A stretch of DNA of 64,000 nucleotides from Phycisphaerales bacterium (GTDB taxonomy: Bacteria > Planctomycetota > Phycisphaerae > Phycisphaerales > UBA1924): assembly GCA_029213305.1 (NCBI GenBank), contig JARGPA010000009.1:38004-102003 (forward strand), written 5' to 3'. The notes beneath the pieces were generated by a model. The model did not search any database and was not told the DNA's origin. It saw only the letters and a list, made by a program, of their open reading frames with translations. The translations under genes were made by a program, and so were the position numbers. Position 1 is the stretch's first letter; each line of letters starts with the position of its first letter. Positions 32,378-48,533 of this stretch are shown here, one piece after another.

Positions 32378-33160
32378 ATGAGCAAGCCAACTGCCCTCGT
32401 GATCAGGACTGCCGGTACGAACTGTGATTTAGAGCTCTGTCGGGGGTTTGAACTCGCAGGTGCTCAGGTTGAACTGATTCATCTTGATCGCTTAATTGCT
32501 GATCCAGCACAAGTTGCGAGATTTGATCTCGTTGGATTCCCCGGCGGATTCTCCTACGGGGACGACATCGCATCTGGACGAATACTCGCGATGCATACCC
32601 GAGATCGCTTACTTCCTGAGTTGCTCAAGCTCGCCGATCGAGGCGTACCCATGATCGGAGTTTGCAACGGATTCCAAGTTATGGTGCAGATTGGGTTATT
32701 GCCTGGAAGGGTTCAACACGAGCAGAGCACTGCATTGTGCGAGAACGATCATGGCCGATTCATTGACCAATGGGTTGAAATGGTTCCGGATCAAGATTCA
32801 AACTGTATTTGGACACAGGGATTACTCGAAAATCAAAGCTCAGAACCAATCCTCTATCCAGTCGCACACGGTGAAGGCAGATTCGTTACAAAGGATCAAG
32901 CAACACTCGACGCACTTAATGCTGGGAATCAGGTTGCGATTCGATATGGGACAGACATCAATGGGTCAGTCGATCAGATTGCGGGAATCTGTGATCCGAG
33001 TGGCCGGATCTTTGGTCTCATGCCTCACCCTGAACGAGCGTTGGATTGGAATCGTCATCCATTTTGGACTCGACTCGATGAGAAAACAAAGAAATCGACG
33101 ACTCCAGGGTTGTCTATCTTCTTGAGTGCAGTTGACGCAGTTGCTCGTCAGAGTGTTTGA
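32378..33160 (+). CDS. purQ: Phosphoribosylformylglycinamidine synthase subunit PurQ (glutaminase)
   Basis: ORF 32318..33160, with the start taken at ATG 32378 (MSKPTALVIRTAGTNCD). The nucleophile context is GVCNGFQ and the His context is MPHPER. Confidence 0.88.
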   Translation: MSKPTALVIRTAGTNCDLELCRGFELAGAQVELIHLDRLIADPAQVARFDLVGFPGGFSYGDDIASGRILAMHTRDRLLPELLKLADRGVPMIGVCNGFQVMVQIGLLPGRVQHEQSTALCENDHGRFIDQWVEMVPDQDSNCIWTQGLLENQSSEPILYPVAHGEGRFVTKDQATLDALNAGNQVAIRYGTDINGSVDQIAGICDPSGRIFGLMPHPERALDWNRHPFWTRLDEKTKKSTTPGLSIFLSAVDAVARQSV

Positions 33161-33187
33161 TTGTTTGCAGATGCAAAGGGGAATGCG

Positions 33188-33685
33188 ATGAACGAAACCG
33201 CTGTCTATGCAGGGAGCTTTGATCCTCCAACCAATGGGCATGTGTGGATGATTGAACAAGGAGCAAGACTCTTTGATCGGTTAATTGTCGCGGCTGCTCG
33301 TAATCCTGAAAAGGGATATACCTACGAGCTTGATCAACGCATTGGATGGTTAGAGGAAATCTGCAAAGCTCATCCCAATGTTGAAGTTGCATCGCTTGAA
33401 AATGAGTTTCTTGCTCATTATGCAGAACGAACGGATGCTCGCTTTGTAATCCGTGGGATCCGCAATGAAGCAGACTATCAATACGAACGCGGCATGCGGT
33501 ATGTGAACTCTGATCTCAACGAGAATCTAGCAACCGTCTTCCTTATGCCTCCAAGAGAGTTGTGCGAGATATCTTCAAGCTTTGTCAAAGGCATGATCGG
33601 TCCTGACGGATGGGAACCCGTTGTAAAACGGTATGTTCCTACATGTGTGTTTGAAGATTTATGTCAAGAGCATTGTCATGAGTGA
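33188..33685 (+). CDS. coaD: Phosphopantetheine adenylyltransferase
   Basis: ORF 33161..33685, with the start taken at ATG 33188. AVYAGSFDPPTNGHVWMI is the T/HxGH nucleotidyltransferase motif, and RGIRNEADYQYE is also present. Confidence 0.9.
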   Translation: MNETAVYAGSFDPPTNGHVWMIEQGARLFDRLIVAAARNPEKGYTYELDQRIGWLEEICKAHPNVEVASLENEFLAHYAERTDARFVIRGIRNEADYQYERGMRYVNSDLNENLATVFLMPPRELCEISSSFVKGMIGPDGWEPVVKRYVPTCVFEDLCQEHCHE

Positions 33686-34118
33686 GTATCATCCAGATCA
33701 GAGTTCGACGCCGATTGATGAGAAGATCATTGCAATGCGCGTAGTTGCAATGCCCGGGGACACCAATCCCTACGGCACAATCTTCGGTGGAATTATCCTG
33801 AGCTATATTGACCAAGCCGGCTTTGTAGAAGCTCGCCGACATGGTGATCTCGATTGGGTAACCGCGGCGATTGAAAAAGTTGAGTTTCATGCTCCAGTAC
33901 ATGTTGGAGATATCGTGACTCTCATTACTGATACCACACGATTAGGGCGCACGAGTATTGATGTACGCGTTGAAGTTGAAGCAGAACGATTCAAATCTCA
34001 TCGCGTTGTGCATGTGACCAGTGCAAGACTCACCATGGTTGGAATGCGCGATGGGAAACCGTTCCCGTTCCGTGAATGTCCATGCAAAGACGAGAGTGAA
34101 TACGGTATTGACGAATGA
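33678..34118 (+). CDS. Hotdog-fold acyl-CoA thioesterase (YciA-like)
   Basis: ORF 33633..34118, with ATG 33678 overlapping the coaD end. The family motif is MPGDTNPYGTIFGGIILSYIDQAG. Confidence 0.8.
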   Translation: MSEYHPDQSSTPIDEKIIAMRVVAMPGDTNPYGTIFGGIILSYIDQAGFVEARRHGDLDWVTAAIEKVEFHAPVHVGDIVTLITDTTRLGRTSIDVRVEVEAERFKSHRVVHVTSARLTMVGMRDGKPFPFRECPCKDESEYGIDE

Positions 34119-34738
34119 GCTTTGATGAACTTGATAAATTTCATTCGCCTACGAGACTCGCAGTGTTGCTCTCAGGGTCTGGAACAACCCTCGACAACTT
34201 GCTGCGTCATATTGACTCAGGTAATCTTGACGCAGATGTACCAGTTGTCATTGCATCGAAAGAGTGTCTAGGCGCTCAAAAAGCTCGAGATGCTGGGATT
34301 CCAACAGTCGTTCATACAGGGCAACTCGATTCTCAAATGCTCGATCAGATCTGTGCTCAGTACGATGTTGATCTTGTGATCCTTGCAGGATATCTCAAGC
34401 TCGTACCTATTAGCCCTCGTGTGCAAAACCGTGTCATTAATATTCATCCAGCATTACTCCCAGACTTTGGTGGAAAAGGAATGCACGGCATGAATGTTCA
34501 TCGAGCAGTTGTCGAATCCGCAAAGCTGGGGAAGATTGATCGATCAGGATGCACGGTGCACTTCGCAGATGAGCATTACGACACAGGATCAACGATAATT
34601 CAGCTCGATTGCCCTATCCATGAGACGGATACTCCAGATGAACTTGCAAAGCGTGTTTTTGAGCTTGAATGTCAAGCTTATCCCCAAGCGATCAAATTAT
34701 TGATTGATCGCAACGCGAGAGCTCACTCAGCCGAATAA
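34115..34738 (+). CDS. purN: Phosphoribosylglycinamide formyltransferase
   Basis: Motifs are RLAVLLSGSGTTLDNLL, VILAGYLKLV, INIHPALLPDFGGKGMHG and HFADEHYDTGSTI. The start overlaps the upstream stop (ATGA). Confidence 0.9.
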   Translation: MSFDELDKFHSPTRLAVLLSGSGTTLDNLLRHIDSGNLDADVPVVIASKECLGAQKARDAGIPTVVHTGQLDSQMLDQICAQYDVDLVILAGYLKLVPISPRVQNRVINIHPALLPDFGGKGMHGMNVHRAVVESAKLGKIDRSGCTVHFADEHYDTGSTIIQLDCPIHETDTPDELAKRVFELECQAYPQAIKLLIDRNARAHSAE

Positions 34739-34744
34739 CAATCT

Positions 34745-36202
34745 ATGAACCAGTTGCTCCGATTGATTACGATCTCAATATTCTTTTGTGTTTCCAATGC
34801 ATTCGGATCACATGCTCCAAATCCAAGTGAGCTTGAGTCGAAAGGGATCGCCGCGATGGTTGCAGGCGATTTTACTCAAGCGGAGTTAGACTTCCGAGAG
34901 TTGATTAAAATCACACCTAGCTCGTTCGTGGGTTATTACAATCTTGCATCTGCACTCTCAATGCAAGGGGACTCAGACGGATCGGTCGATGCAATGTCGA
35001 ATGCAATCACTCTCGGGTTTAGTGATATTAATCAAATCAGACGAGATCCAGATCTAGTAGTTCTCCGTGATTCTGTTTTTTTTGCGGATCTCGACTCGAA
35101 CTGGCAAGCATTGCTCGAAGCTCGCAGAGAGAGTGATCTCAAAGTTGTTCAGCCGCTAATTCGCAAATCGAGAGAAGTGAGAACTCTTGAGAGTCTAAAA
35201 ATAGAGTTACTCTCTGCTCACGATGAGATCGCGACTGATCAAGCAATCGAAGAAATCCAATTGCTCGCAACTTGGGCAAACACAAACTTGTTTTCTGAGA
35301 TTCAAACAACTGAATCTATCGAAGATTCACCATGGATTATGGTTGTGCTCCCCGATCGAGCTGGTTTCGCTCAATGGGCAATCACGGTATTCGGCCCTAG
35401 TGTTCGGAGCAATATCGGGTCAGTTGGAGGCGCATACGAACACCAAAAACGACGATTAGTCGCTCAAGATTTAGGTGCAACTCTCAGACATGAGTTCATT
35501 CATGTGTTGCATTGGAGAGATATGAATCGACTCGGGCAATCACATGCGCCGTGGATCCAAGAGGGACTCGCATCGCTTGTTGAGGATTATGATCTGAGTG
35601 GGGATGATGTCGTACCAGTTGCATCATGGCGCACAAACATTGTGAAACGCATGAGCGATGTTCATCGGATGCCCAAGATTGAAAAACTTGCATCGATCGA
35701 GATGAACGCATTTACTGCAAAAAGACCTCTTGCTCAGTATGCTCAAGCTCGAACAATCATGCTCTATCTGCTGGATGAGCAAAAACTCGGTGAGTTCTAT
35801 TCGATCTATACACAAGGGTACGATGTTGATCCAATTGGGATCAGTGCACTCGAGCAAACACTCGGGAAAGAGATCGATGAGATAGAAATGGATTTTAGAC
35901 TCTGGGTGGATGCACTTGATCGAGTCCCCGAAACTGGGAGTGATCTCTCTGCGACTCTTGGGATTGAGATTGAAAACGGGAACGGCGATGGAGTAGTTGT
36001 CAAAGCACTCCCAGGCAATGCTCGGACTCGCACAGGTCTTCGTTTGGGATCTGTGATTACCGCGATTAATGGTCAGCCTACCCGTGATCTGTTCGAGTTG
36101 ATCCGGATTCTTGGAAAATACAAGCCTGGGCAGATCGTGACATTGCACCATCGCAGGGGCAAAGTGCACACAACGACCAAAGCAAAGCTACTAAAAAGTT
36201 AA
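34745..36202 (+). CDS. Secreted TPR + HExxH-motif domain + C-terminal PDZ protein (putative metallopeptidase)
   Basis: It has a signal peptide, an N-terminal TPR-like region (YYNLASALSMQGDSDGSVDAMSNAI), HEFIHVLH, and a C-terminal PDZ (GDGVVVKALPGNARTRTGLRLGSVITAINGQP). Confidence 0.6.
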   Translation: MNQLLRLITISIFFCVSNAFGSHAPNPSELESKGIAAMVAGDFTQAELDFRELIKITPSSFVGYYNLASALSMQGDSDGSVDAMSNAITLGFSDINQIRRDPDLVVLRDSVFFADLDSNWQALLEARRESDLKVVQPLIRKSREVRTLESLKIELLSAHDEIATDQAIEEIQLLATWANTNLFSEIQTTESIEDSPWIMVVLPDRAGFAQWAITVFGPSVRSNIGSVGGAYEHQKRRLVAQDLGATLRHEFIHVLHWRDMNRLGQSHAPWIQEGLASLVEDYDLSGDDVVPVASWRTNIVKRMSDVHRMPKIEKLASIEMNAFTAKRPLAQYAQARTIMLYLLDEQKLGEFYSIYTQGYDVDPIGISALEQTLGKEIDEIEMDFRLWVDALDRVPETGSDLSATLGIEIENGNGDGVVVKALPGNARTRTGLRLGSVITAINGQPTRDLFELIRILGKYKPGQIVTLHHRRGKVHTTTKAKLLKS

Positions 36203-36235
36203 AATATTCGATTTCTCTGATGCTTAGGTTGCAAC

Positions 36236-36272
36236 CGCCATCCATACTATGTGGTACATAGTATGGATGGCG
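36236..36272. promoter_or_regulatory. 17-bp-arm perfect palindrome 26 nt upstream of the PadR gene (candidate PadR operator, possibly also a terminator for the upstream gene)
   Basis: CGCCATCCATACTATGT-GGT-ACATAGTATGGATGGCG. It contains the ATGT/ACAT half-sites typical of PadR operators, though closer together than the classical 8-nt spacing. Confidence 0.5.
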
Positions 36273-36297
36273 TAGCTTGTACCCCAGGAGATAATCG

Positions 36298-36639
36298 ATG
36301 AAACTTGAACGCGAACTCATGCGTGGCGCCGGCCCAACAGCGGTGTTGAAACTACTCTCGACCCGAGAAATGTACGGCTACGAACTTGTTGAAGCGCTTT
36401 CTCAAAAAACAGATGGTGTACTCGCAATGGGACAATCGACCCTGTATCCAATGCTCTACAACCTAGAAGCAAAGGATCTAATCGAAGCAGATTGGAGATC
36501 CGCGGATAACGGGAGAGATCGGAAGTACTACTCGCTCACTGGGAAGGGTAAGAAAAAACTCAAATCCGACATGGAGTCTTGGGAAAAACTGAGCAAGGCA
36601 ATGGTTTCGTTGGGTGTTCTCAAAGGAGCACTCGCATGA
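36298..36639 (+). CDS. PadR-family transcriptional regulator
   Basis: 113 aa. The winged-helix region is MYGYELVEAL...GQSTLYPMLYNLEAKDLIEADW...RKYYSLTGKGKKKL. Confidence 0.88.
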   Translation: MKLERELMRGAGPTAVLKLLSTREMYGYELVEALSQKTDGVLAMGQSTLYPMLYNLEAKDLIEADWRSADNGRDRKYYSLTGKGKKKLKSDMESWEKLSKAMVSLGVLKGALA

Positions 36640-38645
36640 ACGATTCATCAAAGTTAAATCCATGGCAATGGGCAATCACCCATTCTCCAATTCTACACAC
36701 ACTCAGATGGATGCGATACAAGTGTCTAAAAATTGGGAGTCCGAACCAACAAGCAAAGAGCATTGTGCTTCGTGCAGAGTTACCCATTGATATTGAAAAC
36801 CTGATTGTTACGACAACGACTAAATCCAAGCTTTGGAGTGTTGAACGGGTTGAGATCGCAAGAGAACTCATCGCACACGCTCAAGATGCGATCGAAGCAG
36901 GGCGTACAAGCGAAGAAATTTCAGAACAGTTTGGGGATCCAAAGCGAGTTGCAAAGCTCATGCGTCGTTCGATGAAGCGCAAACGTCCTTTGTATTGGAG
37001 AACATATCGCAATACAAAGCGCGTCATTCTGGGTTCACTTGCAATCATGCTCCTGTTTTACGGTTCACTCGCATTCCGTTTCTACACAGGGAAACCAAAG
37101 GTTCGGAGTAACTATATTGCAGATTTAAACGCACTCAATGAGGGATACTCTGAAGATCAAAAATCTTGGAAGGTGCTCATGGATGTTGGACTTCAATGGG
37201 GGCAGCAGTTGTGGGTATTCGAGAATGCACTCCGAGAGCAAGGGGATGATTCAGGTTTGCTTAGGTCTGAATCTATTAGTCAGTTCTTTCAACGAATTGA
37301 TGAGTCACACCCTGAGTATGATGGGTTTGTGCAGCTTATAAACGGATTCGAAATTGAACTTACTCGACTAAGAGAAGCTGCAACGAGAGAGGTGATTGGG
37401 TTGCCTGTTGGATTTGAATCTACGGAAGTAGAGTGGGAAGGACGAAGTTGGACAACAGGGATCATTCCTGCGACCAATGAAGACTACAAATCCAACTCAA
37501 TGATAGGTGTCTTGCTCCCTCATCTGGGTAATGTACGAAGACTTGGGCAACTCCTGGTTTTTGATTCTCATATTGCTCTTATTGAAGATGATGTAGATCG
37601 ATATGTTCAAGATTTACTCGCCGCGATGGGGCTCGTCCGACAAGTGAAACAAGAGCCTTACTTAATTTCTAAGCTCGTTGGTATCGCGATTCACAAACTG
37701 ATTATCAATGAACTCCACTCAACTCTAAAGAACAATCCAGGATTACTCAACAATGATCAAATCGTCAAACTTGCTCATCTCAATGCAGAAGTGGGGGCGC
37801 AAGAAGGATTCGGAATGGGTACAGAGCGAATTTCATTTTATGATCTTGTCCAAAGGATGTACACAGATGATGGAAATGGAAACGGGCATCTGACCTCTGA
37901 AGGGATTAATTGGTTGAGTCAATATTCAGAGCCAGATCGAGTTGGTCGAAACTCATCGGTAATTGAAATATTGATGAATGAAGAGTCAGTCATTCAGCTT
38001 ATTCGTCCAATCTCGATCGTTCGATCCATGGATCGAAAAAGCGAGTTGCGCTTATACAACAATCATCTCAATTCAGTTGAGCGAGTCGTTGATGATGGTC
38101 CGGAATATTTCGGGTCAATCATAGATCTAGAAGCATCGAGCTCATTTTATAGTTATGATTCAGATCCAACCTTCTTCTCATTAGCTAAAGTCATGATGCC
38201 CGCACTGGGGAATAGCCTCAACAGGTATTACACGCACAAACAAGAGTGCATCGGGCTCGGGACAATGTTGGCAATTGAGTCGTTCCGATTAAAAGAATCT
38301 CGACTCCCTGAGCGACTTGATGATCTTGTTCCAGGGTATCTCCCAAGACTCCCAACGGATTACATGGATCCAGGACAGTCCTTGAAATACAACATCTCAA
38401 CAGATGGGTATGTTCTCTACAGCATCGGGAGTGACGGCGATGATGATGGTGGGAAACTGGATGAAGATTCAATGTCAGGAAACAAGATCACGAGTATCGA
38501 TGTATTCTCGCTTCGGTTTCAATCAACTATTGATCCTAAATCAGGACTCGCACAGTTTGGAAACCAAGGCCAACCAATCCTCGCAGAACCGGTTGGTCCA
38601 GATGGCGATTGGATACTCTTTGATTCTCGACACATGTCAGAGTAA
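36636..38645 (+). CDS. PadR-coupled single-pass membrane protein with a large extracytoplasmic domain
   Basis: ORF 36579..38645, with ATG 36636 overlapping the PadR stop (ATGA). The cytoplasmic helical region with EEISEQFGDPKRVAKLMRRS resembles the PadR-associated 'permease prefix'/HAAS-type domain. It has one TM (VILGSLAIMLLFYGSLAF). The C-terminus YVLYSIGSDGDDDGG resembles the pseudopilin GspG tail. Confidence 0.6.
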   Translation: MNDSSKLNPWQWAITHSPILHTLRWMRYKCLKIGSPNQQAKSIVLRAELPIDIENLIVTTTTKSKLWSVERVEIARELIAHAQDAIEAGRTSEEISEQFGDPKRVAKLMRRSMKRKRPLYWRTYRNTKRVILGSLAIMLLFYGSLAFRFYTGKPKVRSNYIADLNALNEGYSEDQKSWKVLMDVGLQWGQQLWVFENALREQGDDSGLLRSESISQFFQRIDESHPEYDGFVQLINGFEIELTRLREAATREVIGLPVGFESTEVEWEGRSWTTGIIPATNEDYKSNSMIGVLLPHLGNVRRLGQLLVFDSHIALIEDDVDRYVQDLLAAMGLVRQVKQEPYLISKLVGIAIHKLIINELHSTLKNNPGLLNNDQIVKLAHLNAEVGAQEGFGMGTERISFYDLVQRMYTDDGNGNGHLTSEGINWLSQYSEPDRVGRNSSVIEILMNEESVIQLIRPISIVRSMDRKSELRLYNNHLNSVERVVDDGPEYFGSIIDLEASSSFYSYDSDPTFFSLAKVMMPALGNSLNRYYTHKQECIGLGTMLAIESFRLKESRLPERLDDLVPGYLPRLPTDYMDPGQSLKYNISTDGYVLYSIGSDGDDDGGKLDEDSMSGNKITSIDVFSLRFQSTIDPKSGLAQFGNQGQPILAEPVGPDGDWILFDSRHMSE

Positions 38646-38678
38646 ACACAAGTCGATTAATCGGACTATCCTCATTAT

Positions 38679-39224
38679 ATGAATGATGCTACAGGGTTCG
38701 ATTTCCGTCAATACCATGCAGAGCACAAGATCGCAATGATCGTGGCGTGTTCCGAGAACAGAGTGATTGGTGCTCAAGGTGACCTCCCTTGGCATTTGCC
38801 TGGTGATCTCAAGCATTTCATGAGATCGACACGAGGGTGCAGCGTCATCATGGGACGAAAAACCTTCGAAACGCTCGATAAACCATTGCCCAATCGTCTT
38901 AATATCATTTTATCAAGGACTATGAGCGATGATCGTACTGATGGTGTTCGTGTCGCTCAGAGTTTGGATGTAGCAATAGAGATCGCAGAGTCTTCTGGGC
39001 TCGAGATGCCTATCTGGATCGCCGGCGGGGGACATATATATAGGATGGCGCTCGAACAGACGGATTTGGTGGTTCGGACACTCGTTCATGCTCAAGTGGA
39101 AGGGGATACTGAGTTCCCGTTGCTTGATAGTGATGTGTGGGAGATTGATAGATCGGTACATTGCGATGCAGATGAGAAGCATCCGCACTCATTCACAATT
39201 GAGTGGTGGACCCGTCAAAGTTGA
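38679..39224 (+). CDS. folA: Dihydrofolate reductase
   Basis: IAMIVACSENRVIGAQGDLPWHLPGDLKHFMRSTRGCSVIMGRKTFETL and WIAGGGHIYR. Confidence 0.9.
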   Translation: MNDATGFDFRQYHAEHKIAMIVACSENRVIGAQGDLPWHLPGDLKHFMRSTRGCSVIMGRKTFETLDKPLPNRLNIILSRTMSDDRTDGVRVAQSLDVAIEIAESSGLEMPIWIAGGGHIYRMALEQTDLVVRTLVHAQVEGDTEFPLLDSDVWEIDRSVHCDADEKHPHSFTIEWWTRQS

Positions 39225-39422
39225 AATTGTCAGGCCTGATAAAAAAAGTTATCCAGATTCATTTGCATTCTAAAAATCGTTGATTTCCGCATGTTGATGT
39301 CCAATTGGCTTTAGATGCGAAATTTCGCGGATTTGATTGCGTGAAAAACGGAGTTGGTTTTTGTCAGGGCCTTCGAATTGTTCAGGTTTCAAAAAAAAGC
39401 CCCTCAGATGAAGCAATTATGC

Positions 39423-39451
39423 TTGCAAGACGAATCCGGAATGGTTAACAT
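39423..39451 (+). promoter_or_regulatory. Candidate sigma70-type promoter for the first PEP-CTERM paralog
   Basis: TTGCAA-N17-TAACAT, about 90 nt upstream of ATG 39538. This is a pattern match only. Confidence 0.3.
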
Positions 39452-39537
39452 CGTCACGGGTCAGGAACGTTTTATCGTTCTTACGAAGGTATCTGGGTAC
39501 TTTTCCCAGAACCAAATATCACTGAGGAGAAAGAGAA

Positions 39538-40149
39538 ATGAAGACTACACTTGGACTTATCGCAGTTGCAGGTCTCGCTTCGGCAGCAGCAGCTGGTGGC
39601 GCAAGCCTTAGCATCGTTGCTTCAGCAGCTACAGTTGACACAACTGGCGCTTCAGCAACAGTAACTCTCGCTGTTTACGGCGACGCAGTTGGTACAGCAA
39701 TCGCTGGTGGCGAGTTCGCACTCACCGCTTCAGGCGGAGCTGGCCTTGTTTCAGACATGACCGGTGCTGCTGCAGCATGGGGTGCACTCGGCGGCCAAGA
39801 TAACGGCCACGCTGGTGACGGCAACTACAACGGATTGATCTTCGGTCAGTTGATCTTCCCTCCATTCATCAACCCAGCTGCAGAGTCAATGCTCGGCAAC
39901 GGTCCTGTCCTCTTGGGCAACATCACCGTTACCATCGCTGCTGACACTTCAGGTGTGATCGACTGGTCAACCGCTGCTGGTGCTGGCGACTTCATCCTTG
40001 AAGTATTCACTGATGACGGAGCTGCTGGTGTATTCGAGCAACTCACAGACGTTGCTCACGGATCAGCTTCACTCAACGTAGTACCTGCACCATCCGCTAT
40101 GGCTCTTCTCGGCCTCGGTGGACTCGTTGCTGGTCGTCGTCGCCGCTAA
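39538..40149 (+). CDS. PEP-CTERM-tailed secreted protein, paralog 1 (uncharacterised Ala/Gly/Thr-rich domain)
   Basis: RBS GAGGAGA. It has a signal peptide MKTTLGLIAVAGLASAAAAG, the core block GQLIFPPFINPAAESMLGNGPVLLG, and the tail VVPAPSAMALLGLGGLVAGRRRR. Codon choice is strongly C-ending. Confidence 0.85.
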   Translation: MKTTLGLIAVAGLASAAAAGGASLSIVASAATVDTTGASATVTLAVYGDAVGTAIAGGEFALTASGGAGLVSDMTGAAAAWGALGGQDNGHAGDGNYNGLIFGQLIFPPFINPAAESMLGNGPVLLGNITVTIAADTSGVIDWSTAAGAGDFILEVFTDDGAAGVFEQLTDVAHGSASLNVVPAPSAMALLGLGGLVAGRRRR

Positions 40150-40211
40150 TCGCTGCGTGACAACCGATTCAGTCGATAATCTTCGGATTTGACACTGTAC
40201 TGAATCAATAT

Positions 40212-40250
40212 CCCCCGATCGGGTTTTCCCGATCGGGGGTTCTTTTTTTT
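40212..40250 (+). terminator. Rho-independent terminator of paralog 1
   Basis: CCCCCGATCGGG-TTTT-CCCGATCGGGGG forms a 12-bp stem, followed by TTCTTTTTTTT. Confidence 0.85.
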
Positions 40251-40523
40251 GATATATGGGAATTACAGATTCGGTATGGAAATAAAGATTATCGGCGATA
40301 ATTGGGATGAATACGTCAAATCAGCTTGAAAACAGCGATTCGTGATGTGTGGATTCTAAAAAACGCCCACAATTCGGCAAAAATGAGATCTGAATTTGGT
40401 AATCGACTGGCACCAACCCCGAAGTTGGATTACTTTTCGGTCAGGTCACGAACGAGTTGTTCGTTCCAACAGGTCAACGGTTAAAAAATAGAATCCATAA
40501 ACAAATTTGAGGAGAACTTCCAA

Positions 40524-41132
40524 ATGAAGAACGCAATCGCACTTATCGCAGTAGCTGGTATCGCAACAGTCGCATCAGCAGGTGGCGCAAACCTAAGCAT
40601 CGTCGCTTCGGCTTCAACCATCGACTCAACAGTTTCAACTTCATTCACACTCGCAGTATACGGCGACGCAACCGGAACAGCTATGGCTGGTGGTGAGTTC
40701 GCTCTTACAGCTTCAGGTGGTGCAGGCATCGTTACTGACATGGTCGGTGCAGCAGCAGCATGGGGTGCTCTTGGACAAGAAGATCTCGGCCACGGCGGAG
40801 ACGGCAACTACAACGGCCTCATCTTCGGTCAGTTGATCTTCCCTCCATTCATTAACCCTGCTGCAGACTCAATGCTCGGCAACGGTCCAGTTCTCTTGGG
40901 TAACATCACTGTTACTATCGCTGCTGATTCAGCTGGCGTAATCGACTGGTCAACCGCAGCTGGTGCTGGTGACTTCATCCTTGAAGTATTCACCGACGAC
41001 GGAGCTGCAGGTGTATTCGAGCAGCTCACAGCTGTAGGTCACGGATCAGCACGTGTAAACGTTGTTCCTGCTCCATCAGCAATGGCAATGCTCGGCCTCG
41101 GTGGTCTCGTTGCAGGTCGTCGTCGCCGCTAA
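40524..41132 (+). CDS. PEP-CTERM-tailed secreted protein, paralog 2
   Basis: RBS GAGGAGA. It is collinear with and highly similar to paralog 1, with the core GQLIFPPFINPAADSMLGNGPVLLG and the tail VVPAPSAMAMLGLGGLVAGRRRR. Confidence 0.85.
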   Translation: MKNAIALIAVAGIATVASAGGANLSIVASASTIDSTVSTSFTLAVYGDATGTAMAGGEFALTASGGAGIVTDMVGAAAAWGALGQEDLGHGGDGNYNGLIFGQLIFPPFINPAADSMLGNGPVLLGNITVTIAADSAGVIDWSTAAGAGDFILEVFTDDGAAGVFEQLTAVGHGSARVNVVPAPSAMAMLGLGGLVAGRRRR

Positions 41133-41185
41133 TCGCTGCGAAACGCCGACACAGTTGATATTCAACTGAATACGCAATCTTAAGT

Positions 41186-41220
41186 CCCCCGATCAGTTCG
41201 CTGATCGGGGGTTCTTTAAT
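41186..41220 (+). terminator. Rho-independent terminator of paralog 2
   Basis: CCCCCGATCAG-TTCG-CTGATCGGGGG forms an 11-bp stem, followed by TTCTTTAATTT. Confidence 0.75.
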
Positions 41221-41364
41221 TTGCGATACAACCTTTATAACTACAAGATTCCATCTTGTGTCACATTAGATATTAGAATAACTTATGTATAAGAGATTAT
41301 GTGATCTCATTTGGATTCGGTACGACCACGATTTTTAGTTCCGTAGATATGTGAGGAGAAAGAG

Positions 41365-41985
41365 ATGAAAATTGCATTAGGAATGATTGCACTCGCAGGT
41401 CTTGCAAATATCGCAAGCGCACAGTCCGCATCGTTGAGCATTGTGAGTCCAGTTGCAACAATCGATACATCTGGAGGCTCAGTAAGCATTTCTCTGGAGA
41501 TCTTTGCGGATGTTGACTTTGGAACAGCAATCGCAGGAGGCGAGTTCGCACTTGATGGCACTGCTCCTGTCAATTCAGTCGCAAGTATGATTGGAGCTTC
41601 AGCAGCATGGGGAGAACTCGGATTCCAGGATAACGGGTATGCTGGAGACGCTGATTACAATGGGATGATCTTTGGACAGTTGATCTTCCCTCCATTCATT
41701 AATCCAGCTGTAGAGTCAATGCTCGGTAACGGCCCAGTCTTGCTTGGAACGGTAACAGTCGTAATCAATTCTCACACTTTTGGTGTCTGGGACTGGAATA
41801 CCGCTGCAGGATCAGGTGATTTCATGCTTGAGATTTATACTGATGACGGTGGCGCTGGAGTCTTTACCCAGTTGACTGCTGATGATATATCAATGGGTAG
41901 TGCTTCATTGAGTGTTGTTCCTAACCCATCTTCACTCGTGATTATTGGCGTTGGAGGTCTGATCGGTACTCGCCGTCGCCGCTAA
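41365..41985 (+). CDS. PEP-CTERM-tailed secreted protein, paralog 3
   Basis: RBS GAGGAGA. It has the signal peptide MKIALGMIALAGLANIASA, the core GQLIFPPFINPAVESMLGNGPVLLG, and the tail VVPNPSSLVIIGVGGLIGTRRRR. Confidence 0.85.
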   Translation: MKIALGMIALAGLANIASAQSASLSIVSPVATIDTSGGSVSISLEIFADVDFGTAIAGGEFALDGTAPVNSVASMIGASAAWGELGFQDNGYAGDADYNGMIFGQLIFPPFINPAVESMLGNGPVLLGTVTVVINSHTFGVWDWNTAAGSGDFMLEIYTDDGGAGVFTQLTADDISMGSASLSVVPNPSSLVIIGVGGLIGTRRRR

Positions 41986-42036
41986 TCGCTGCGAAACGCC
42001 GACACAGTTGATATCCAACTGAATACGCAATCTTAA

Positions 42037-42070
42037 GCCCCTCGATCAGTTCGCTGTTCGGGGGGCTTTA
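42037..42070 (+). terminator. Degenerate copy of the paralog-2 terminator, downstream of paralog 3
   Basis: GCCCCTCGATCAG-TTCG-CTGTTCGGGGGGC has two stem mismatches relative to a perfect hairpin, and its T tract is weak. Confidence 0.45.
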
Positions 42071-42216
42071 ATTTGCGATACAGCCTTTAAAACAACAAGA
42101 TTTCATCTTGTGTCACATTAGATATTAGAATAACTTATATATAAGAGATTATGTGATCTCATTTGGATTCGGCACGACCACGATTTTTAGTGCCGTAGAA
42201 ATGTGAGGAGAAAGAG

Positions 42217-42837
42217 ATGAAAATTGCATTAGGAATGATTGCACTCGCAGGTCTTGCAAATATCGCAAGCGCACAGTCCGCATCGTTGAGCATTGTGAGT
42301 CCAGTTGCAACAATCGATACATCTGGAGGCTCAGTAAGCATTTCTCTGGAGATCTTTGCGGATGTTGACTTTGGAACAGCAATCGCAGGAGGCGAGTTCG
42401 CACTTGATGGCACTGCTCCTGTCAATTCAGTCGCAAGTATGATTGGAGCTTCAGCAGCATGGGGAGAACTCGGATTCCAGGATAACGGGTATGCTGGAGA
42501 CGCTGATTACAATGGGATGATCTTTGGACAGTTGATCTTCCCTCCATTCATTAATCCAGCTGTAGAGTCAATGCTCGGTAACGGCCCAGTCTTGCTTGGA
42601 ACGGTAACAGTCGTAATCAATTCTCACACTTTTGGTGTCTGGGACTGGAATACCGCTGCAGGATCAGGTGATTTCATGCTTGAGATTTATACTGATGACG
42701 GTGGCGCTGGAGTCTTTACCCAGTTGACTGCTGATGATATATCAATGGGTAGTGTTTCAGTATTTATGATACCTGCGCCTTCATCTATCGCACTTATTGG
42801 ACTCGGTGGATTGATTGGTACTCGTCGTCGTCGCTGA
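42217..42837 (+). CDS. PEP-CTERM-tailed secreted protein, paralog 4 (identical to paralog 3 except for the tail)
   Basis: The first 179 residues are identical to paralog 3. The tail is VSVFMIPAPSSIALIGLGGLIGTRRRR. Confidence 0.85.
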   Translation: MKIALGMIALAGLANIASAQSASLSIVSPVATIDTSGGSVSISLEIFADVDFGTAIAGGEFALDGTAPVNSVASMIGASAAWGELGFQDNGYAGDADYNGMIFGQLIFPPFINPAVESMLGNGPVLLGTVTVVINSHTFGVWDWNTAAGSGDFMLEIYTDDGGAGVFTQLTADDISMGSVSVFMIPAPSSIALIGLGGLIGTRRRR

Positions 42838-42870
42838 GAACATTCGTCCGTAAACTGAGTTAAAAAATAG

Positions 42871-42904
42871 ATACCCCATAGCAGTCTGCTGTGGGGTATT
42901 TTGT
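42871..42904 (+). terminator. Rho-independent terminator of paralog 4
   Basis: ATACCCCATAGCAG-TC-TGCTGTGGGGTAT forms a stem with one G-U pair, followed by TTTTG. Confidence 0.7.
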
Positions 42905-42997
42905 GTAACCCACTAAAGAGTGGGTCTCGTAAAGACATGAATGTGGTACTCTTGTTGTGAGTACTGATCATCCATCGAAAAGAGTCGAAGGGAAGTA

Positions 42998-43606
42998 TTG
43001 ATGAACCGGACAGTTTGCATCTTCGCATTTGCAGGTCTCGTAACCCAAGCGTCAGCGCAGAATTATATTCTTCGAATCGAAGGCGGCCCGCAACAAGTAA
43101 ATACCAGCTCAGGATCTGTCTCAATCACCCTCGATGTGATCGGAGATGCAGAAGAAGGTCTTGGGACTCACATGCTTTGGGGGAGCTTTGCTCTCGAATC
43201 AATCGGTTCAGCGGTTATCGAAGATATCAGTTGGACCCATGCAGATTGGTCAGAGTTTAATATCGATGGTGGATACGACGGCCTAGGCGCTTACAACCGT
43301 ATCGAGTTCGGGCAATGGGAGGGATCAGGGTTCATTCCACGATCTGGTTCCGAACTTGGACAGTTGATCGGACAGTTCCAAATCACACTCGCACAGAGTG
43401 ATATTGCATCTGGGATGCTCGATTTTAGATTGTTACAATCAAGCTCATATGCTTTGAGCACTATTGATATCGATACAGGCGCATCGTATTACTCTACTCC
43501 TGAAGACTTAGTTCTGGAAGGGTTTTCGACGGTTGTAGTTCCTGCACCTTCAAGTGCGATGATCGTTCTGAGCGCTAGTCTTCTCTCGATTCGTCGAAGA
43601 CGATAG
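42998..43606 (+). CDS. PEP-CTERM-tailed secreted protein, divergent paralog 5
   Basis: It has the same length and outline as the other paralogs: signal peptide MMNRTVCIFAFAGLVTQASA, SGSVSITLDVIGDA, FGQWEGSGFIP, and the tail VVVPAPSSAMIVLSASLLSIRRRR. Sequence identity to paralogs 1-4 is low. Confidence 0.75.
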   Translation: MMNRTVCIFAFAGLVTQASAQNYILRIEGGPQQVNTSSGSVSITLDVIGDAEEGLGTHMLWGSFALESIGSAVIEDISWTHADWSEFNIDGGYDGLGAYNRIEFGQWEGSGFIPRSGSELGQLIGQFQITLAQSDIASGMLDFRLLQSSSYALSTIDIDTGASYYSTPEDLVLEGFSTVVVPAPSSAMIVLSASLLSIRRRR

Positions 43607-43608
43607 TC

Positions 43609-44148
43609 TCAGGGTGATTCCTCTGAATCGTCTGATTTTTCGGCTTCGAGGATCATGAAAGACAGAACGACAGCGCCATCTGCATATAGATCGAGTTGTG
43701 TTCGTTCTGGATGATATGCATCAACTTGTTGGAGAAGCTGGATGTATCGAGCTTCCTGTTGCATGACCCCTTGGGGTTCGGCGCAGTACATCCGGGTTGT
43801 TAAGATATCACTGAACTTGAGTCCTGCATCAGCTTTGCGGATGTAGTTCCCAGTGTATCGATTGCATCCTGCATTGCCATCGAGCCAGGTGTGTTCTTTA
43901 AGTTGGAGTTGGATGTTTGTTCCCGCGATTGGTGCGTGGCCTTCGATGAGGAACAGGTGCCATTCTTGTCCAGTGATCCATGCCCAATCTTGTTCTGCTT
44001 GTTGGATCGCGTTGACCATTGGGCGCGTATCGGTTCTTGGTTCAAGTTCTTTGTTCTTGTCTGCGCATCCTTGGATATTGAGCAATGTAAAACTAATGCA
44101 ACTGAAGATAAGAGTCTTCAAAAGAAAGCTTCTTAGTGATGTTGACAT
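43609..44148 (-). CDS. META-domain (HslJ-like) lipoprotein
   Basis: It has the lipobox-like LNIQGC, then WHLFLIEG...NAGCNRYTGNY...LKFSDILTTRMYCAEPQGVMQQEARYIQLLQQVDAY, the META-domain pattern. Confidence 0.75.
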   Translation of the reverse strand: MSTSLRSFLLKTLIFSCISFTLLNIQGCADKNKELEPRTDTRPMVNAIQQAEQDWAWITGQEWHLFLIEGHAPIAGTNIQLQLKEHTWLDGNAGCNRYTGNYIRKADAGLKFSDILTTRMYCAEPQGVMQQEARYIQLLQQVDAYHPERTQLDLYADGAVVLSFMILEAEKSDDSEESP

Positions 44149-44235
44149 GATTTGCTCTCCTGCAGTTCTTACGTCTCGATTTGCAGTTTAGTTCTTCAAG
44201 TGAATCGTCTCCACTTCTAGATTCTTACCATGAAT

Positions 44236-44742
44236 CTAACTGCTGAGCGATTGGTCAGGGATTCCTCCTAATGCGCCCATTGATACATCGTAGAGTTCAT
44301 GCATCTGAGCTTGAGCGAATTTTTGACCAATCAATGATGCCCAGTATATCAGAACTGCAAGGATAATGAAGAGCGGAATGAGCTTGGCAGCTGCAGGAGG
44401 TTTATTCATCATCCATTGAGCAACTCCAAACATTGCAGCAAAGAAACTTAATGTTGCAAGAGATATATATGTGAACATGAAACCTGTCCAAACACTGGGG
44501 TTGGGGCTGAATCGGCCTTTAATTGCTGATCCTGTCTCGAGTTGATGGACTTCGATGTTGAGCCAAGGAGACCAGAAATGTCTCGATTCTGGGGGGATCA
44601 CAAGCATGAGATGGTTACCAGCGATTCGTCCTGAGATTGGAAAGTCTGCATCATCTAGCAATGTGCTGAGTTTATGAATTGCTTCTTGGTCTTCCAGGGG
44701 AAACTCAATTCGAAAAGTTGGTCTCATCGGGGGAATCTGCAT
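44236..44742 (-). CDS. Hypothetical membrane protein
   Basis: 168-aa ORF with a soluble N-terminal half and two C-terminal TM helices. No motif was recognised. Confidence 0.5.
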   Translation of the reverse strand: MQIPPMRPTFRIEFPLEDQEAIHKLSTLLDDADFPISGRIAGNHLMLVIPPESRHFWSPWLNIEVHQLETGSAIKGRFSPNPSVWTGFMFTYISLATLSFFAAMFGVAQWMMNKPPAAAKLIPLFIILAVLIYWASLIGQKFAQAQMHELYDVSMGALGGIPDQSLSS

Positions 44743-44895
44743 TGGTTGCTCTTTACTGAATTTGCCTGAAGAGGATTGTGTGAGATCAGTAATGAGCGTA
44801 CCAGATTTGCTATATAAGCGATGTCTATATCCTCAATCTTTATGTGCAAAAAATGGAAAACCATGCACTCGATAAAGTGTGGGATATGATCTCGC

Positions 44896-45444
44896 ATGAA
44901 AACAGACAACGCGGTATCAAAGCTCGCTCAACTGATTTACGATGTCCCGGATTTTCCCAAGCCCGGAGTTGTCTATAAGGATTTCACTCCGATGCTCGCG
45001 GATCCTTCGGCGCTTGCTCTTGCGGTTGAGTTGATGGCGAATCCATATCGTGGAAAGGGTATCGATCTGGTTGTCGGGGCCGAGAGTAGAGGGTTTATCT
45101 TTGGGATTGCGATCGCTCAAGCACTCTCAGCGGGGTTTGTACCGGTTCGGAAGCCTGGAAAACTACCTCGCGAAGTGCACGGCGTTGAATATGATCTAGA
45201 GTACGGATCCGATCGACTTGAGCTTCATGAAGATGCGTTGTGCAAGGGTAATCGAGTCTTGCTTGTCGATGATCTCCTTGCAACTGGGGGGACGATGAGA
45301 GCAAGTTGCCAACTCGTAGAACGGACAGGTGCAGAGATCTACGGGATCACAGTACTGATAGAGCTTGATTTCCTCAATGGACGGAAACTTCTCGATGGGT
45401 ATGGAGACCTTCACTCTGTACTTCGGTATGAGGCTAACGACTAA
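44896..45444 (+). CDS. apt: Adenine phosphoribosyltransferase
   Basis: DFPKPGVVYKDFTPML, GAESRGFIFG and the PRPP-binding loop VLLVDDLLATGGT. Confidence 0.9.
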   Translation: MKTDNAVSKLAQLIYDVPDFPKPGVVYKDFTPMLADPSALALAVELMANPYRGKGIDLVVGAESRGFIFGIAIAQALSAGFVPVRKPGKLPREVHGVEYDLEYGSDRLELHEDALCKGNRVLLVDDLLATGGTMRASCQLVERTGAEIYGITVLIELDFLNGRKLLDGYGDLHSVLRYEAND

Positions 45445-45581
45445 AACGGTCTCAGATTCCGGGTGGAATCGGGTCTTGGAACATGCGAGTTTATGCGGGT
45501 TCGGAGCTATCATTCATTCCCGTCAACTCCAAGAGTTTTCGGGCAAGTATGATGCCCATTGAATTCTTGTAGGAACGAGCA

Positions 45582-48533
45582 ATGACCAGCACCCCAACCC
45601 AAGGCCGACACGCAATGGCAAACTCAGTTTCGTCGTATTCACCGATTACTCCGAGTGATATCGAAGCGCATTCACTGTTCCCAACTCGTCACATCGGTCC
45701 TCGCGATAGTGATGGTGCAGAAATGCTGCGATCAATCGGACTCGATTCGATGGATGAGTTGATCAATCAGGTTGTCCCCGCGGATATCCGACTAAATGGC
45801 GAGCTCGATCTTCCTGCAGCACGCACAGAATACAACCTATGGCACGATCTCAGAAAGATCGCAGAGAAGAACAAACTGTTCAGATCATGTATCGGTATGG
45901 GGTACACTGGGACGATCACCCCGGCTGTAATCCTAAGAAATGTGTTAGAGAATCCTCAGTGGTACACGCAATACACGCCGTATCAACCCGAGACAGCGCA
46001 AGGACGACTTGAAGCATTACTCAACTTCCAGACCATGATCTCTGATCTAACGGGATTGCCTCTCGCGAGCTCATCATTGCTTGACGAAGGGACTGCGGCG
46101 GCTGAAGCAGTCGCGATGGTTGTTTCGATTGGGCGCAACAAACGAGCAAAGTTTTTCGTTGCAGAGGATTGTCATCCACAAACAATTGCCGTCGTAAGAA
46201 CACGAGCAGAAGCGATGGGTGTTGAGATTGTTGTTGCAGCTGCAGAATCGTTTGATCTCGCGGATAATCAAGCCGCGGGTGTGTTGTTACAGTACCCAAC
46301 AAGTGATGGGCGCATCGAGAACTACGAACAGTTGACCAAAGATGCACATGAAAATGGAATGATGGTCGTCGCGGCTGTCGATTTGCTTTCATTGACTCTT
46401 CTCAAAGCACCTGGGGTTTGGGGCGCAGATATTTGTGTTGGAAACGCTCAGAGGTTTGGAGTTCCAATGGGATTCGGCGGCCCTCACGCGGGATTCATGT
46501 CCACGAGTGAAGCTCATGTCCGTAAAATGCCAGGTCGATTAGTCGGGGTATCTCGCGATGTAAACGGGAATCCTGCACTCCGTCTCGCGATCCAGACACG
46601 CGAACAACATATCAAACGAGACAGAGCAACAAGTAACATCTGTACTGCTCAGGTACTGCTTGCGATCATGTCGTCCATGTACGGCGTGTATCACGGACCT
46701 GATGGGCTCACAAACATCGCAAAGCGTGTTCATGCTCAAACGCAAACCTTGCGAGTTGGGTTGATGGATCTTGGACATGAAATTTCAAGCGAGCAAGTGT
46801 TTGATACACTCCGTGTTCGAGTGAATGGAGATACTGATGCAGTGCTTGGTGCTGCTCGAGCTCGAAGGATAAACCTGAGGGACTTCAACGATGGAACTCT
46901 TGGAATCACCCTTGATGAAACTGCGGACCATGGATTGTTGCATGATCTACTCGAATCATTCGGTGGTAGCAACGAAGAAGATCTCAACGAACTCGCTCAA
47001 CGGGCAACACTCGATATTGACGAGTGTTCAAGGCGCACTACGCCTTTCATGACGCATGAAGTGTTTAATAGTCATCGATCTGAAACTGAAATGCTCAGGT
47101 ACATCACTGAGCTACAATCACGAGAGCTCTCACTTGCACATTCGATGATCCCACTTGGGTCATGCACAATGAAACTGAACGCGACAAGCGAGATGCTCCC
47201 GGTTACTTGGCCTGAGTTTGCTCATATGCATCCATTTGCACCACGGGAACAGTGGGAAGGGTACGCGGTGCTCTTCGATCAACTCGAATCATGGCTCGCA
47301 GAGATTACAGGTTTCGCAGCAGTCTCGTTGATGCCCAACGCAGGAAGCCAAGGCGAGTTTACCGGGTTGCTCACAATCAAAGCATATCACGATCACAACG
47401 GAGAAGGACAACGAAACATCTGTCTGATTCCTGAGAGCGCCCATGGGACAAACCCCGCGTCTGCGATCGTTGCAGGACTCAAGGTTGTTGCAGTAAAAGT
47501 GAACGAAGCTGGCGCTATCGAAATTGAGGATCTCAGAGCGAAAGCTGATAAGCACAAAGATAACCTCGCAGCTGCGATGATTACATACCCATCAACCTGT
47601 GGCGTGTTCGATGACAACATTCGCGAGATGATTGACACAGTTCACGAGTTCGGTGGATTGGTATATCTCGATGGCGCGAACATGAACGCACAAGTCGGGA
47701 TCTGTCGTCCTGGTGATTACGACGCAGATGTGTGTCATCTCAACTTGCACAAAACATTCTGTATCCCACACGGCGGTGGAGGCCCAGGAGTAGGTCCAAT
47801 CGGTGTGAACGATAAGCTCGCTCCGTTCTTGCCTGGACACCCCGTCCGTAACCCTGCAAGCGCAGGTGGGAACGCTGTTGGGCCTGTAAGTTCAGCACCT
47901 GAAGGGAGTGCGAGCATACTTCCAATCTCTTGGACTTATATCGCGCTGATGGGGCCCGATGGGCTCACGAAAGCATCGCAATATGCGATCCTCAATGCGA
48001 ACTATATGGTAGAGCGATTGAAGGATCATTACCCTGTCCTATTCAGAGGATCAAAGGGCCGGGTAGCGCATGAATTTGTGATTGATTGTCGTCAGTTTAA
48101 AAAGAGCGCAGCGATCGAGATCGACGATATTGCAAAGCGATTAATCGACTTTGGATTCCACGCACCAACGATGAGTTGGCCTGTCCCAGGCACATTGATG
48201 ATTGAACCGACGGAATCAGAATCCAAAGCAGAACTTGATCGTTTCTGTGATGCGTTGATCACAATCCGATCTGAAATTGCACAGATTGAAAACGGTGAGT
48301 ATCCACAAGACGACAATCCGCTCAAAGGTGCGCCTCATTCAATCGCAGCAGTGGGGGCTGACGAATGGACACACCCATATTCACGCGATGTTGCAGCTTA
48401 TCCCGCGGAGCATCTGCGAAGAGCAAAGTTCTGGTCACCAGTCGGACGGGTTGATAATCCGTTTGGGGATCGAAACTTGATTTGCTCATGTCCAACTGTT
48501 GGAGAGCTTTGCGAAACGGATCTCGATCAGTAA
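45582..48533 (+). CDS. gcvP: Glycine dehydrogenase (decarboxylating), single-chain P-protein of the glycine cleavage system
   Basis: 983 aa. Motifs are [51 protein letters not shown] and the PLP-lysine context [18 protein letters not shown]. Confidence 0.93.

Follow-up and report, generated by a model that had tools for sequence, protein, structure and literature searches.

The window, a stretch of 64,000 nucleotides from a marine Phycisphaerales bacterium (assembly GCA_029213305.1, contig JARGPA010000009.1, positions 38,004 to 102,003), carries a tandem array of genes for putative exosortase-sorted surface proteins. The third and fourth genes of this array, P3 and P4, are identical over their bodies and end in different tails. 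The list of open reading frames places five genes, P1 to P5, at positions 39538–43606 of the window, all on the forward strand and of 201–206 codons each. The host assembly comprises 2.93 Mb in 38 scaffolds with 47% GC. P1 (39538–40149, 203 residues) is an open reading frame for a putative signal peptide, a cohesin-like body and a PEP-CTERM tail. It is followed by P2 (40524–41132, 202 residues), whose final RRRR codons and stop form the left border of the repeat unit. Spacer A (41133–41364), which holds the P2 terminator with a hairpin at 41186–41211 and the upstream region of P3, leads into the P3 reading frame (41365–41985, 206 residues). P3 terminates in tail 3 (41903–41985; ASLSVVPNPSSLVIIGVGGLIGTRRRR plus the stop), comprising the last β-strand, a VPNP motif, a transmembrane helix and RRRR. 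Spacer B (41986–42216), a paralogous copy of spacer A with its terminator hairpin at about 42035–42068, separates P3 from the P4 reading frame (42217–42837, 206 residues), which ends in tail 4 (42755–42837; VSVFMIPAPSSIALIGLGGLIGTRRRR plus the stop). The terminator-like hairpin located 3' of P4 (42870–42900, -21.6 kcal/mol, z -5.4) is unrelated to the hairpin of spacers A and B, and each of P3 and P4 has its own upstream region and stable downstream hairpin. P5 (42998–43606, probable ATG at 43001) is the divergent member of the array and displays 36% amino acid identity to P3.

The repeat that contains P3 and P4 has a period of 852 nucleotides (41365 to 42217), and homology between the two units can be traced back to the RRRR codons that close P2 and P3 (about 41117 and 41970). 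An ungapped comparison of 41349–41902 with 42201–42754 revealed 0 differences in 554 nucleotides. The identical block consists of 538 coding nucleotides together with 16 nucleotides upstream that cover the Shine-Dalgarno region, and in its first copy it reaches through codons 1–179 of P3. In contrast, the two spacers (41133–41364 versus 41986–42216) are 94% identical, with 13 substitutions and 1 indel across 232 aligned columns, while tail codons 180–206 (41902–41982 versus 42754–42834) are 65% identical, with 28 differences in 80 nucleotides. An earlier note on this DNA had described an 852-bp-period duplication with P3 and P4 identical over 538 nucleotides from the ATG, an abrupt divergence in the last 27 codons, spacers less conserved than the coding body, and a P3 end and downstream flank that match the end of P2. 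All of this was borne out, and the identity extends 16 nucleotides further upstream than had been described. Changes in the terminator stem, of which two had been counted, are present as well, but they amount to three substitutions and an indel in the hairpin region. These changes are compensated (-22.7 kcal/mol in spacer A and -23.6 kcal/mol in spacer B), and with hairpins of equal stability in the two spacers the idea of a decaying terminator in spacer B was rejected.

The divergence between tail 3 and tail 4, with a proportion of synonymous differences (pS) of 0.62, a synonymous divergence (dS) of about 1.3 and a nonsynonymous divergence (dN) of 0.27, has saturated the synonymous sites and matches that of the most divergent tail pairs in the array; tail 4 is nearer to tail 1 (69%) than to tail 3. 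At the divergence displayed by the spacers, the probability of finding 0 differences is 1e-14 over the 554 sites of the block and 6e-4 over its 129 synonymous sites. Chance is excluded as the cause of the body identity, and by the same pairwise comparison substitutions spread evenly over the repeat are ruled out (P from 6e-4 to 1e-14). Purifying selection was rejected as a cause since it cannot remove synonymous differences and none is found at the 129 synonymous sites. The P3/P4 repeat is the sole repeat of at least 150 nucleotides at 95% identity or more in the whole 2.93-Mb assembly.

Arrays in related lineages

The family of P3 and P4 is restricted to one genus, and 23 of the 24 congeneric genomes have it in tandem arrays. 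G014 and GCA_041156805.1 (L022) contain syntenic five-gene arrays composed, as in the window, of four similar genes and a divergent fifth. These arrays also share the flanks of the window array, with PadR, HAAS and DHFR genes upstream and genes for a META lipoprotein, APRT and GcvP downstream. Genes 3 and 4 of L022 are both of the P3/P4 type and are mutually 76% identical in amino acid and 74% in nucleotide sequence. A relatives search with P3 among the genome contigs gave no confirmed relative, exact look-ups of the P3 and P4 sequences returned nothing outside the window's own genome, and codon-degenerate scans of the genome contigs for tail 3 and tail 4 produced 0 matches each. In a single-contig congener (G008:C1) four equal-scoring copies of the family are positioned at 2635, 9918, 3574522 and 3581805, forming two pairs, each 7283 nucleotides apart and close to both contig ends. 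A large segmental duplication, overlap between the ends of a contig that is circular, or a combination of the two could account for these pairs.

L024, an independent 159-kb metagenome contig of the Joint Genome Institute (JGI), was recovered with a codon-degenerate query for the tail 3 peptide and carries the same five-gene array (genes designated here by K). Throughout this array it is matched exactly by two further records, L025 and L026, and the samples that yielded L024–L026 are JGI 3300027834 and 3300002225. Over 14.6 kb this lineage and the window share 87.6% identity; P1 and its ortholog K1 are 94.8% identical in nucleotide sequence, and P5 and its ortholog K5 are separated by a dS of 1.07. 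K3, the positional ortholog of P3, has a body of the same type, termed alpha, that is 93.9% identical to that of the window. The alpha body of K3 is followed by a tail identical to tail 3 at 80 of 80 nucleotides and by the same junction of tail 3 with spacer B. Similarly, spacer B is orthologous to the spacer between K3 and K4 (93.9% identical), with AAGCCCC and GGGGGGCTTT common to both, and the bases specific to spacer B lie within 42015–42200. K4 combines a body of a second type, termed beta, with a tail of its own. The bodies of K3 and K4 differ at a dS of 0.36, and for this reason the P3/P4 pair is regarded as old.

Two other features of this lineage were observed. In K3 (L024 3038–3676, minus strand, and also in L025 and L026) the stop codon TAA is replaced by GAA, which adds the six residues ESLRNA after RRRR, and the sorting signal is thus no longer at the extreme C-terminus. 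Over window positions 32535–47184 the identity to L025 is patchy, ranging from 70 to 97% per 300 nucleotides, with the PadR–HAAS genes and P1–P3 at 92–97% and P5, the META gene and a membrane protein gene at 71–87%. This patchiness suggests recombination between lineages or very uneven constraint.

The closest relative of the window is L021, a 1556-bp JGI metagenome contig with a single gene between P2 and P5. It is 99.1–99.5% identical to the window in the 3' end of P2 (361/363) and in spacer A (230/232), and the tail of its gene matches tail 4 at 81 of 83 positions including the stop, or 78 of 80 without it. The L021 gene equals the window body over its first 68 nucleotides, as part of an 84-nucleotide run from 41349, and over its last 104 nucleotides. 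Its central 366 nucleotides (L021 666–1031) are 84–85% identical to the window body, and this centre is 94% identical to the beta body of K4. Expressed in the coordinates of P3 in the window, the L021 gene is alpha from its 5' end to at least 41424 and beta across 41471–41798. Positions 598–1218 of the contig (JGI 3300050571, Ga0491458_066111) present the P3 spacer and 5' end fused to the P4 beta body and tail 4, an arrangement consistent with an 852-nucleotide deletion by unequal crossover between 41424 and 41471. Because an alpha 5' end is joined to a beta body, the L021 gene would represent a deletion between two pre-existing genes and not an ancestral single copy.

Origin of the identical bodies

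K3 and K4 are distinguished by 61 body sites, and at 50 of these both window copies display the alpha state. In a FastTree phylogeny of the bodies the L021 gene (M34) groups with K4 (support 0.976), apart from P3, P4 and K3, while in the corresponding tail tree P4 groups with M34, apart from ((P3,K3),K4) (support 0.946). Trees and diagnostic sites thus place the body of P4 with its paralog P3 and the unconverted tail of P4 with its positional ortholog. The identical tract also stands between diverged flanks (0/554 versus 14/232 in the spacers and 28/80 in the tails), as is characteristic of gene conversion. Probably, then, P3 and P4 are old paralogs, and gene conversion replaced the beta body of P4 with the alpha body of P3. 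The relatives' arrays, the diagnostic sites and the discordant trees all support the ongoing gene conversion that the earlier note had offered as one of two explanations.

The putative donor, copy 1 of the identical block (41349–41902), is unchanged, since P3 joins an alpha body to tail 3 exactly as its ortholog K3 does. Copy 2 (42201–42754) would be the maximal converted tract in the recipient P4. The minimal tract (42323–42632) is defined by the diagnostic sites 41471–41780 in P3 coordinates shifted by 852, and there the positional orthologs of P4, the L021 gene and K4, are beta where the window is alpha. Eighteen substitutions private to the window genome occur in both P3 and P4, which favours an intragenomic donor, and the private alpha sites of the P4 copy lie within 42285–42563. 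Twelve of the 18 private substitutions cluster in 72 nucleotides (41433–41504; 42285–42356), many of them amino-acid-changing and none of them shared by K3, K4 or the L021 gene; the cluster may mark a patch acquired by import or a surface strand that is hypervariable.

The alpha body of P4 might instead have been imported from another strain by homologous recombination rather than copied from the resident P3. The patchy identity between the window and L025 over 14.6 kb, and a tail 3 that is identical across lineages, suggest exchange between lineages at this locus. However, the P4 body is identical to the resident P3 at 554 of 554 positions, including the 18 substitutions found in no other sequence, and a resident donor 852 nucleotides away is the simplest source. 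A foreign import is thus considered very unlikely.

Conversion of P4 by P3 could have proceeded as follows. In the ancestral state P3 would have consisted of an alpha body with tail 3 and P4 of a beta body with tail 4. A recent non-reciprocal homologous recombination in the window genome, probably dependent on RecA, would have transferred the alpha sequence of P3 to the body of P4 in place of its beta sequence. Stretches of 84 nucleotides at the 5' end and 104 nucleotides at the 3' end, already common to the two genes, would have provided the homologous anchors; these ends are regarded as shared beforehand because the L021 gene has both. The replaced tract would measure at least 310 nucleotides (42323–42632) and at most 554 (42201–42754). 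Entry into the tail would have been prevented by its 35% divergence and lack of usable homology, perhaps through mismatch-driven rejection. The identity would therefore halt sharply at codon 180, where usable homology ends. The 94% identity of the spacers may record an older homogenisation or the original duplication. The three populations would represent the three outcomes expected of recombination in a tandem repeat, namely the unchanged pair (L024–L026), conversion (the window) and deletion (L021). P3 might also be supposed to have arisen by simple unequal crossover involving the ends of P2 and P4. That origin was rejected, since the 5' part of tail 3 would then have to match tail 4, and it does not.

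The second explanation of the earlier note invoked a duplication of very recent date with subsequent recombination at the tail. In one version of it, a single gene like that of L021 would have been duplicated in tandem, and one copy would then have acquired a foreign tail and spacer. The single gene between P2 and P5 in the closest relative is in keeping with such a history, as is the lack of a donor of either tail elsewhere in the genome. Nevertheless, L024–L026, about 12% diverged from the window, show the same placement of tail 3, of spacer B and of a separate gene beyond them, and the pair must predate that split. Both genes, with different bodies (dS 0.36), are already present in this approximately 88% identical lineage, and the tails of P3 and P4 are saturated. 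Furthermore, the alpha 5' end and beta body of the L021 gene carry the signature of a deletion, and unequal crossover would make tail 3 a copy of tail 4, at odds with the observed dS of 1.3. Independent origins of the L024-type arrays with a convergent tail 3 are implausible at 80/80 nucleotide identity. A recent duplication is extremely improbable, and this part of the earlier note falls.

Several points weigh against conversion of P4 by P3. Its direction and mechanism (RecA, mismatch-repair barrier) are read from the sequence pattern alone, and no independent assembly has an alpha body joined to tail 4. The genome is available as short-read scaffolds with 100-N gaps, in which the second alpha copy depends on the assembler traversing one 'body' edge twice. 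In addition, the 84- and 104-nucleotide stretches exactly common to L021 and the window are the anchors expected of an assembly-graph bubble, and a contig of the beta centre smaller than the smallest retained contig (4.4 kb) would be invisible. Under an assembly artefact of this kind the true P4 would be beta, as in L024, and the beta centre would have been lost or bypassed while the alpha edge was threaded twice along body, tail 3, spacer B and body. Such an error would have struck the only repeat of at least 150 nucleotides in the 2.93-Mb short-read assembly. However, a 366-nucleotide path of 85% identity and equal depth would not be merged by common bubble-popping rules (SPAdes and MEGAHIT defaults), assemblers more often collapse repeats than create them, and the assembly of the window genome has no beta-type sequence left anywhere, not even as a fragment. 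The junction of tail 3, spacer B and body is independently present in L024, L025 and L026, so the tandem arrangement at least is real. An artefact is on balance unlikely, and gene conversion from P3 to P4 is retained as the preferred explanation.

Tail history and sorting signals

With the conversion of P4 by P3, tails 3 and 4 are to be read not as segments swapped in but as the unconverted remains of two older genes. The tail swap proposed in the earlier note is accordingly turned around, the body of P4 having been overwritten by that of P3. The proposal of the tail as a separate module survives in part, in that an older replacement at the codon-180 junction probably took place in one lineage, although no tail was swapped onto a fresh duplicate. 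Such a replacement is suggested because tail 4 and the K4 tail, 70% identical and separated by a dS of 1.13, adjoin beta bodies that differ at a dS of only 0.22. The K4 tail and tail 3 share 86% identity, and the most economical version is a conversion of K4 by K3 in the L024 lineage, for which no extra donor is needed. A run of 99 nucleotides over tail 3 (41884–41982) is identical to L024 at the nucleotide level, against a dS of 0.15 in the adjoining body (P of about 0.005) and differences of 6–12% in the surroundings. For tail 4 an old origin is weakly suggested by a similar peptide in G023, a more distant genome; at the nucleotide level the tail of G023 has about 62% identity to every tail, and its GC content is different. 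Within the assembly, a blastn search for sequences that might have donated either tail gave nothing above 76–85% identity over partial lengths.

Codons 180–206, which include the last β-strand and the PEP-CTERM signal, may constitute a cassette that is exchanged on its own, in which case recombination would repeatedly have found its boundary at the codon-180 junction. The homogenisation of the bodies up to codon 180, the replacement of a tail there in one lineage and the identity of tail 3 across lineages fit this idea, which is held here as a doubtful one. If the tails were kept distinct by selection, the same cargo might go to two exosortases, or it might meet cleaved versus membrane-retained fates.

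The C-termini of P3 (VPNPSSLVIIGVGGLIGTRRRR) and P4 (IPAPSSIALIGLGGLIGTRRRR), each followed by the stop, both present the Pro-x-Pro motif, hydrophobic helix and basic cluster of a PEP-CTERM signal, with N (P3) or A (P4) and not E as the middle residue of the motif. The N-terminus (MKIALGMIALAGLANIASA/QS) resembles a Sec signal by eye, and helix 4–13 of the structural model is of low confidence. P1 (17.5), P2 (17.0) and P4 (17.3) pass the cutoff of 16 of TIGR02595, and P3 is not among the matches at E-values up to 1. With Pfam PF07589 (cutoff 20.7) all the array genes remain below the threshold, P3 scoring 15.0 and P4 17.4, and P5 matches neither model. A regular-expression census of the genome recovered about 35 PEP-CTERM-like tails (PAP 16, PTP 10, PLP 4, PSP 4 and PNP 1), among which P3, with VPNP, is the sole PNP tail. 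Tails 3 and 4 nevertheless lie in the common tail class and outside a separate VPLP group. The genome encodes two exosortases (PF09721, 174 and 139 bits) at C18:41724–42500 on the minus strand and C4:69351–70142 on the plus strand; one is XrtA-like and passes TIGR02602 (111.6 versus 105.55), and the other passes TIGR04178. The second exosortase is most like XrtW and XrtD, and the gene that follows it matches the C-terminal part of the XrtD model. The four VPLP-tailed proteins might be clients of this XrtW/XrtD-like exosortase.

The earlier note had ended on two identical cargo copies with different sorting signals. Both tails, however, and about 30 others in the genome fall in one xPxPS...GLGG...RRRR class, and differential targeting of P3 and P4 is not supported. 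The two proteins are presumably processed by the same exosortase and, if cleavage occurs at PxP, their mature forms would differ at five residues (180–185). Judged by these sequence features, the conversion would probably double the dose of one cohesin-like surface protein, with two independently transcribed genes for nearly identical mature products, and would change dosage and not targeting.

Body fold and comparison with known systems

The AlphaFold model of P4 (42 homologs; predicted local distance difference test score, pLDDT, 87.7) displays a β-sandwich in which the last strand spans residues 179–184, followed by a helix at 188–205. Its best Foldseek matches in the PDB are cohesins, with E-values of 1e-5 to 1e-4 and target TM-scores of 0.55–0.72. 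A Pfam search of the body gave no cohesin match and returned the PEP-CTERM motif only. The model thus describes the body as a cohesin-like β-sandwich, the resemblance being one of fold only. In the family alignment the body of P3 and P4 (41365–41901) contains an invariant GQLIFPPF-type segment (G104, Q105 and P110). The predicted fold is shared with cohesin modules such as those of type I cellulosomal scaffoldins and of Clostridium perfringens GH84C (PDB 4UMS, 5LXV and 2JH2). In contrast to these modules, the body has no match to the Pfam cohesin family and no known dockerin partner, and its sequence identity to them is 12–14%.

The array resembles the PEP-CTERM/exosortase (EpsH, Xrt) system in its putative signal peptide, C-terminal Pro-x-Pro, hydrophobic helix of about 14–17 residues and RRRR, and in the presence of about 35 such tails and two exosortase genes in the window genome. 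It differs in that the motif is VPAP, IPAP or VPNP and not PEP, the P3 tail falls below both hidden Markov model cutoffs, the family is restricted to one genus, and processing is predicted from sequence. PEP-CTERM regions have been described as more alike within than between species and as 'a modular domain', and a parallel with sortase-type systems underlies the proposed cleavage at Pro-x-Pro (Haft et al. 2006, PMC1569441).

The array offers a natural example of how exosortase-sorted surface proteins evolve, with an unconverted pair, a putatively converted pair and a fused single gene at one locus, and it illustrates that identical paralogs in such arrays are not necessarily recent duplicates. 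Because body and tail can differ in history, their junction is a module boundary that matters for the annotation and phylogeny of PEP-CTERM proteins. The P3/P4 case is best read as concerted evolution of tandem PEP-CTERM paralogs through gene conversion, a known process acting in a known system, and alone it opens no new biological question. A literature search linking PEP-CTERM with gene conversion found no publication in the library searched, and to our knowledge no phenotype and no phase or antigenic variation is attached to P3 and P4.

Gene conversion among bacterial paralogs occurs in tufA/tufB of Salmonella and in babA/babB and sabA/sabB of Helicobacter pylori. These pairs share with P3/P4 the non-reciprocal copying of an internal tract between conserved ends, with borders where homology drops, and the natural coexistence of converted pairs, unconverted pairs and deletion or fusion variants. 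In contrast to these systems, P3 and P4 are adjacent, with a period of 852 nucleotides, and each possesses its own promoter region and terminator. The part left unconverted in P3 and P4 is also of a different kind, namely the C-terminal sorting signal and not a ligand-binding region.

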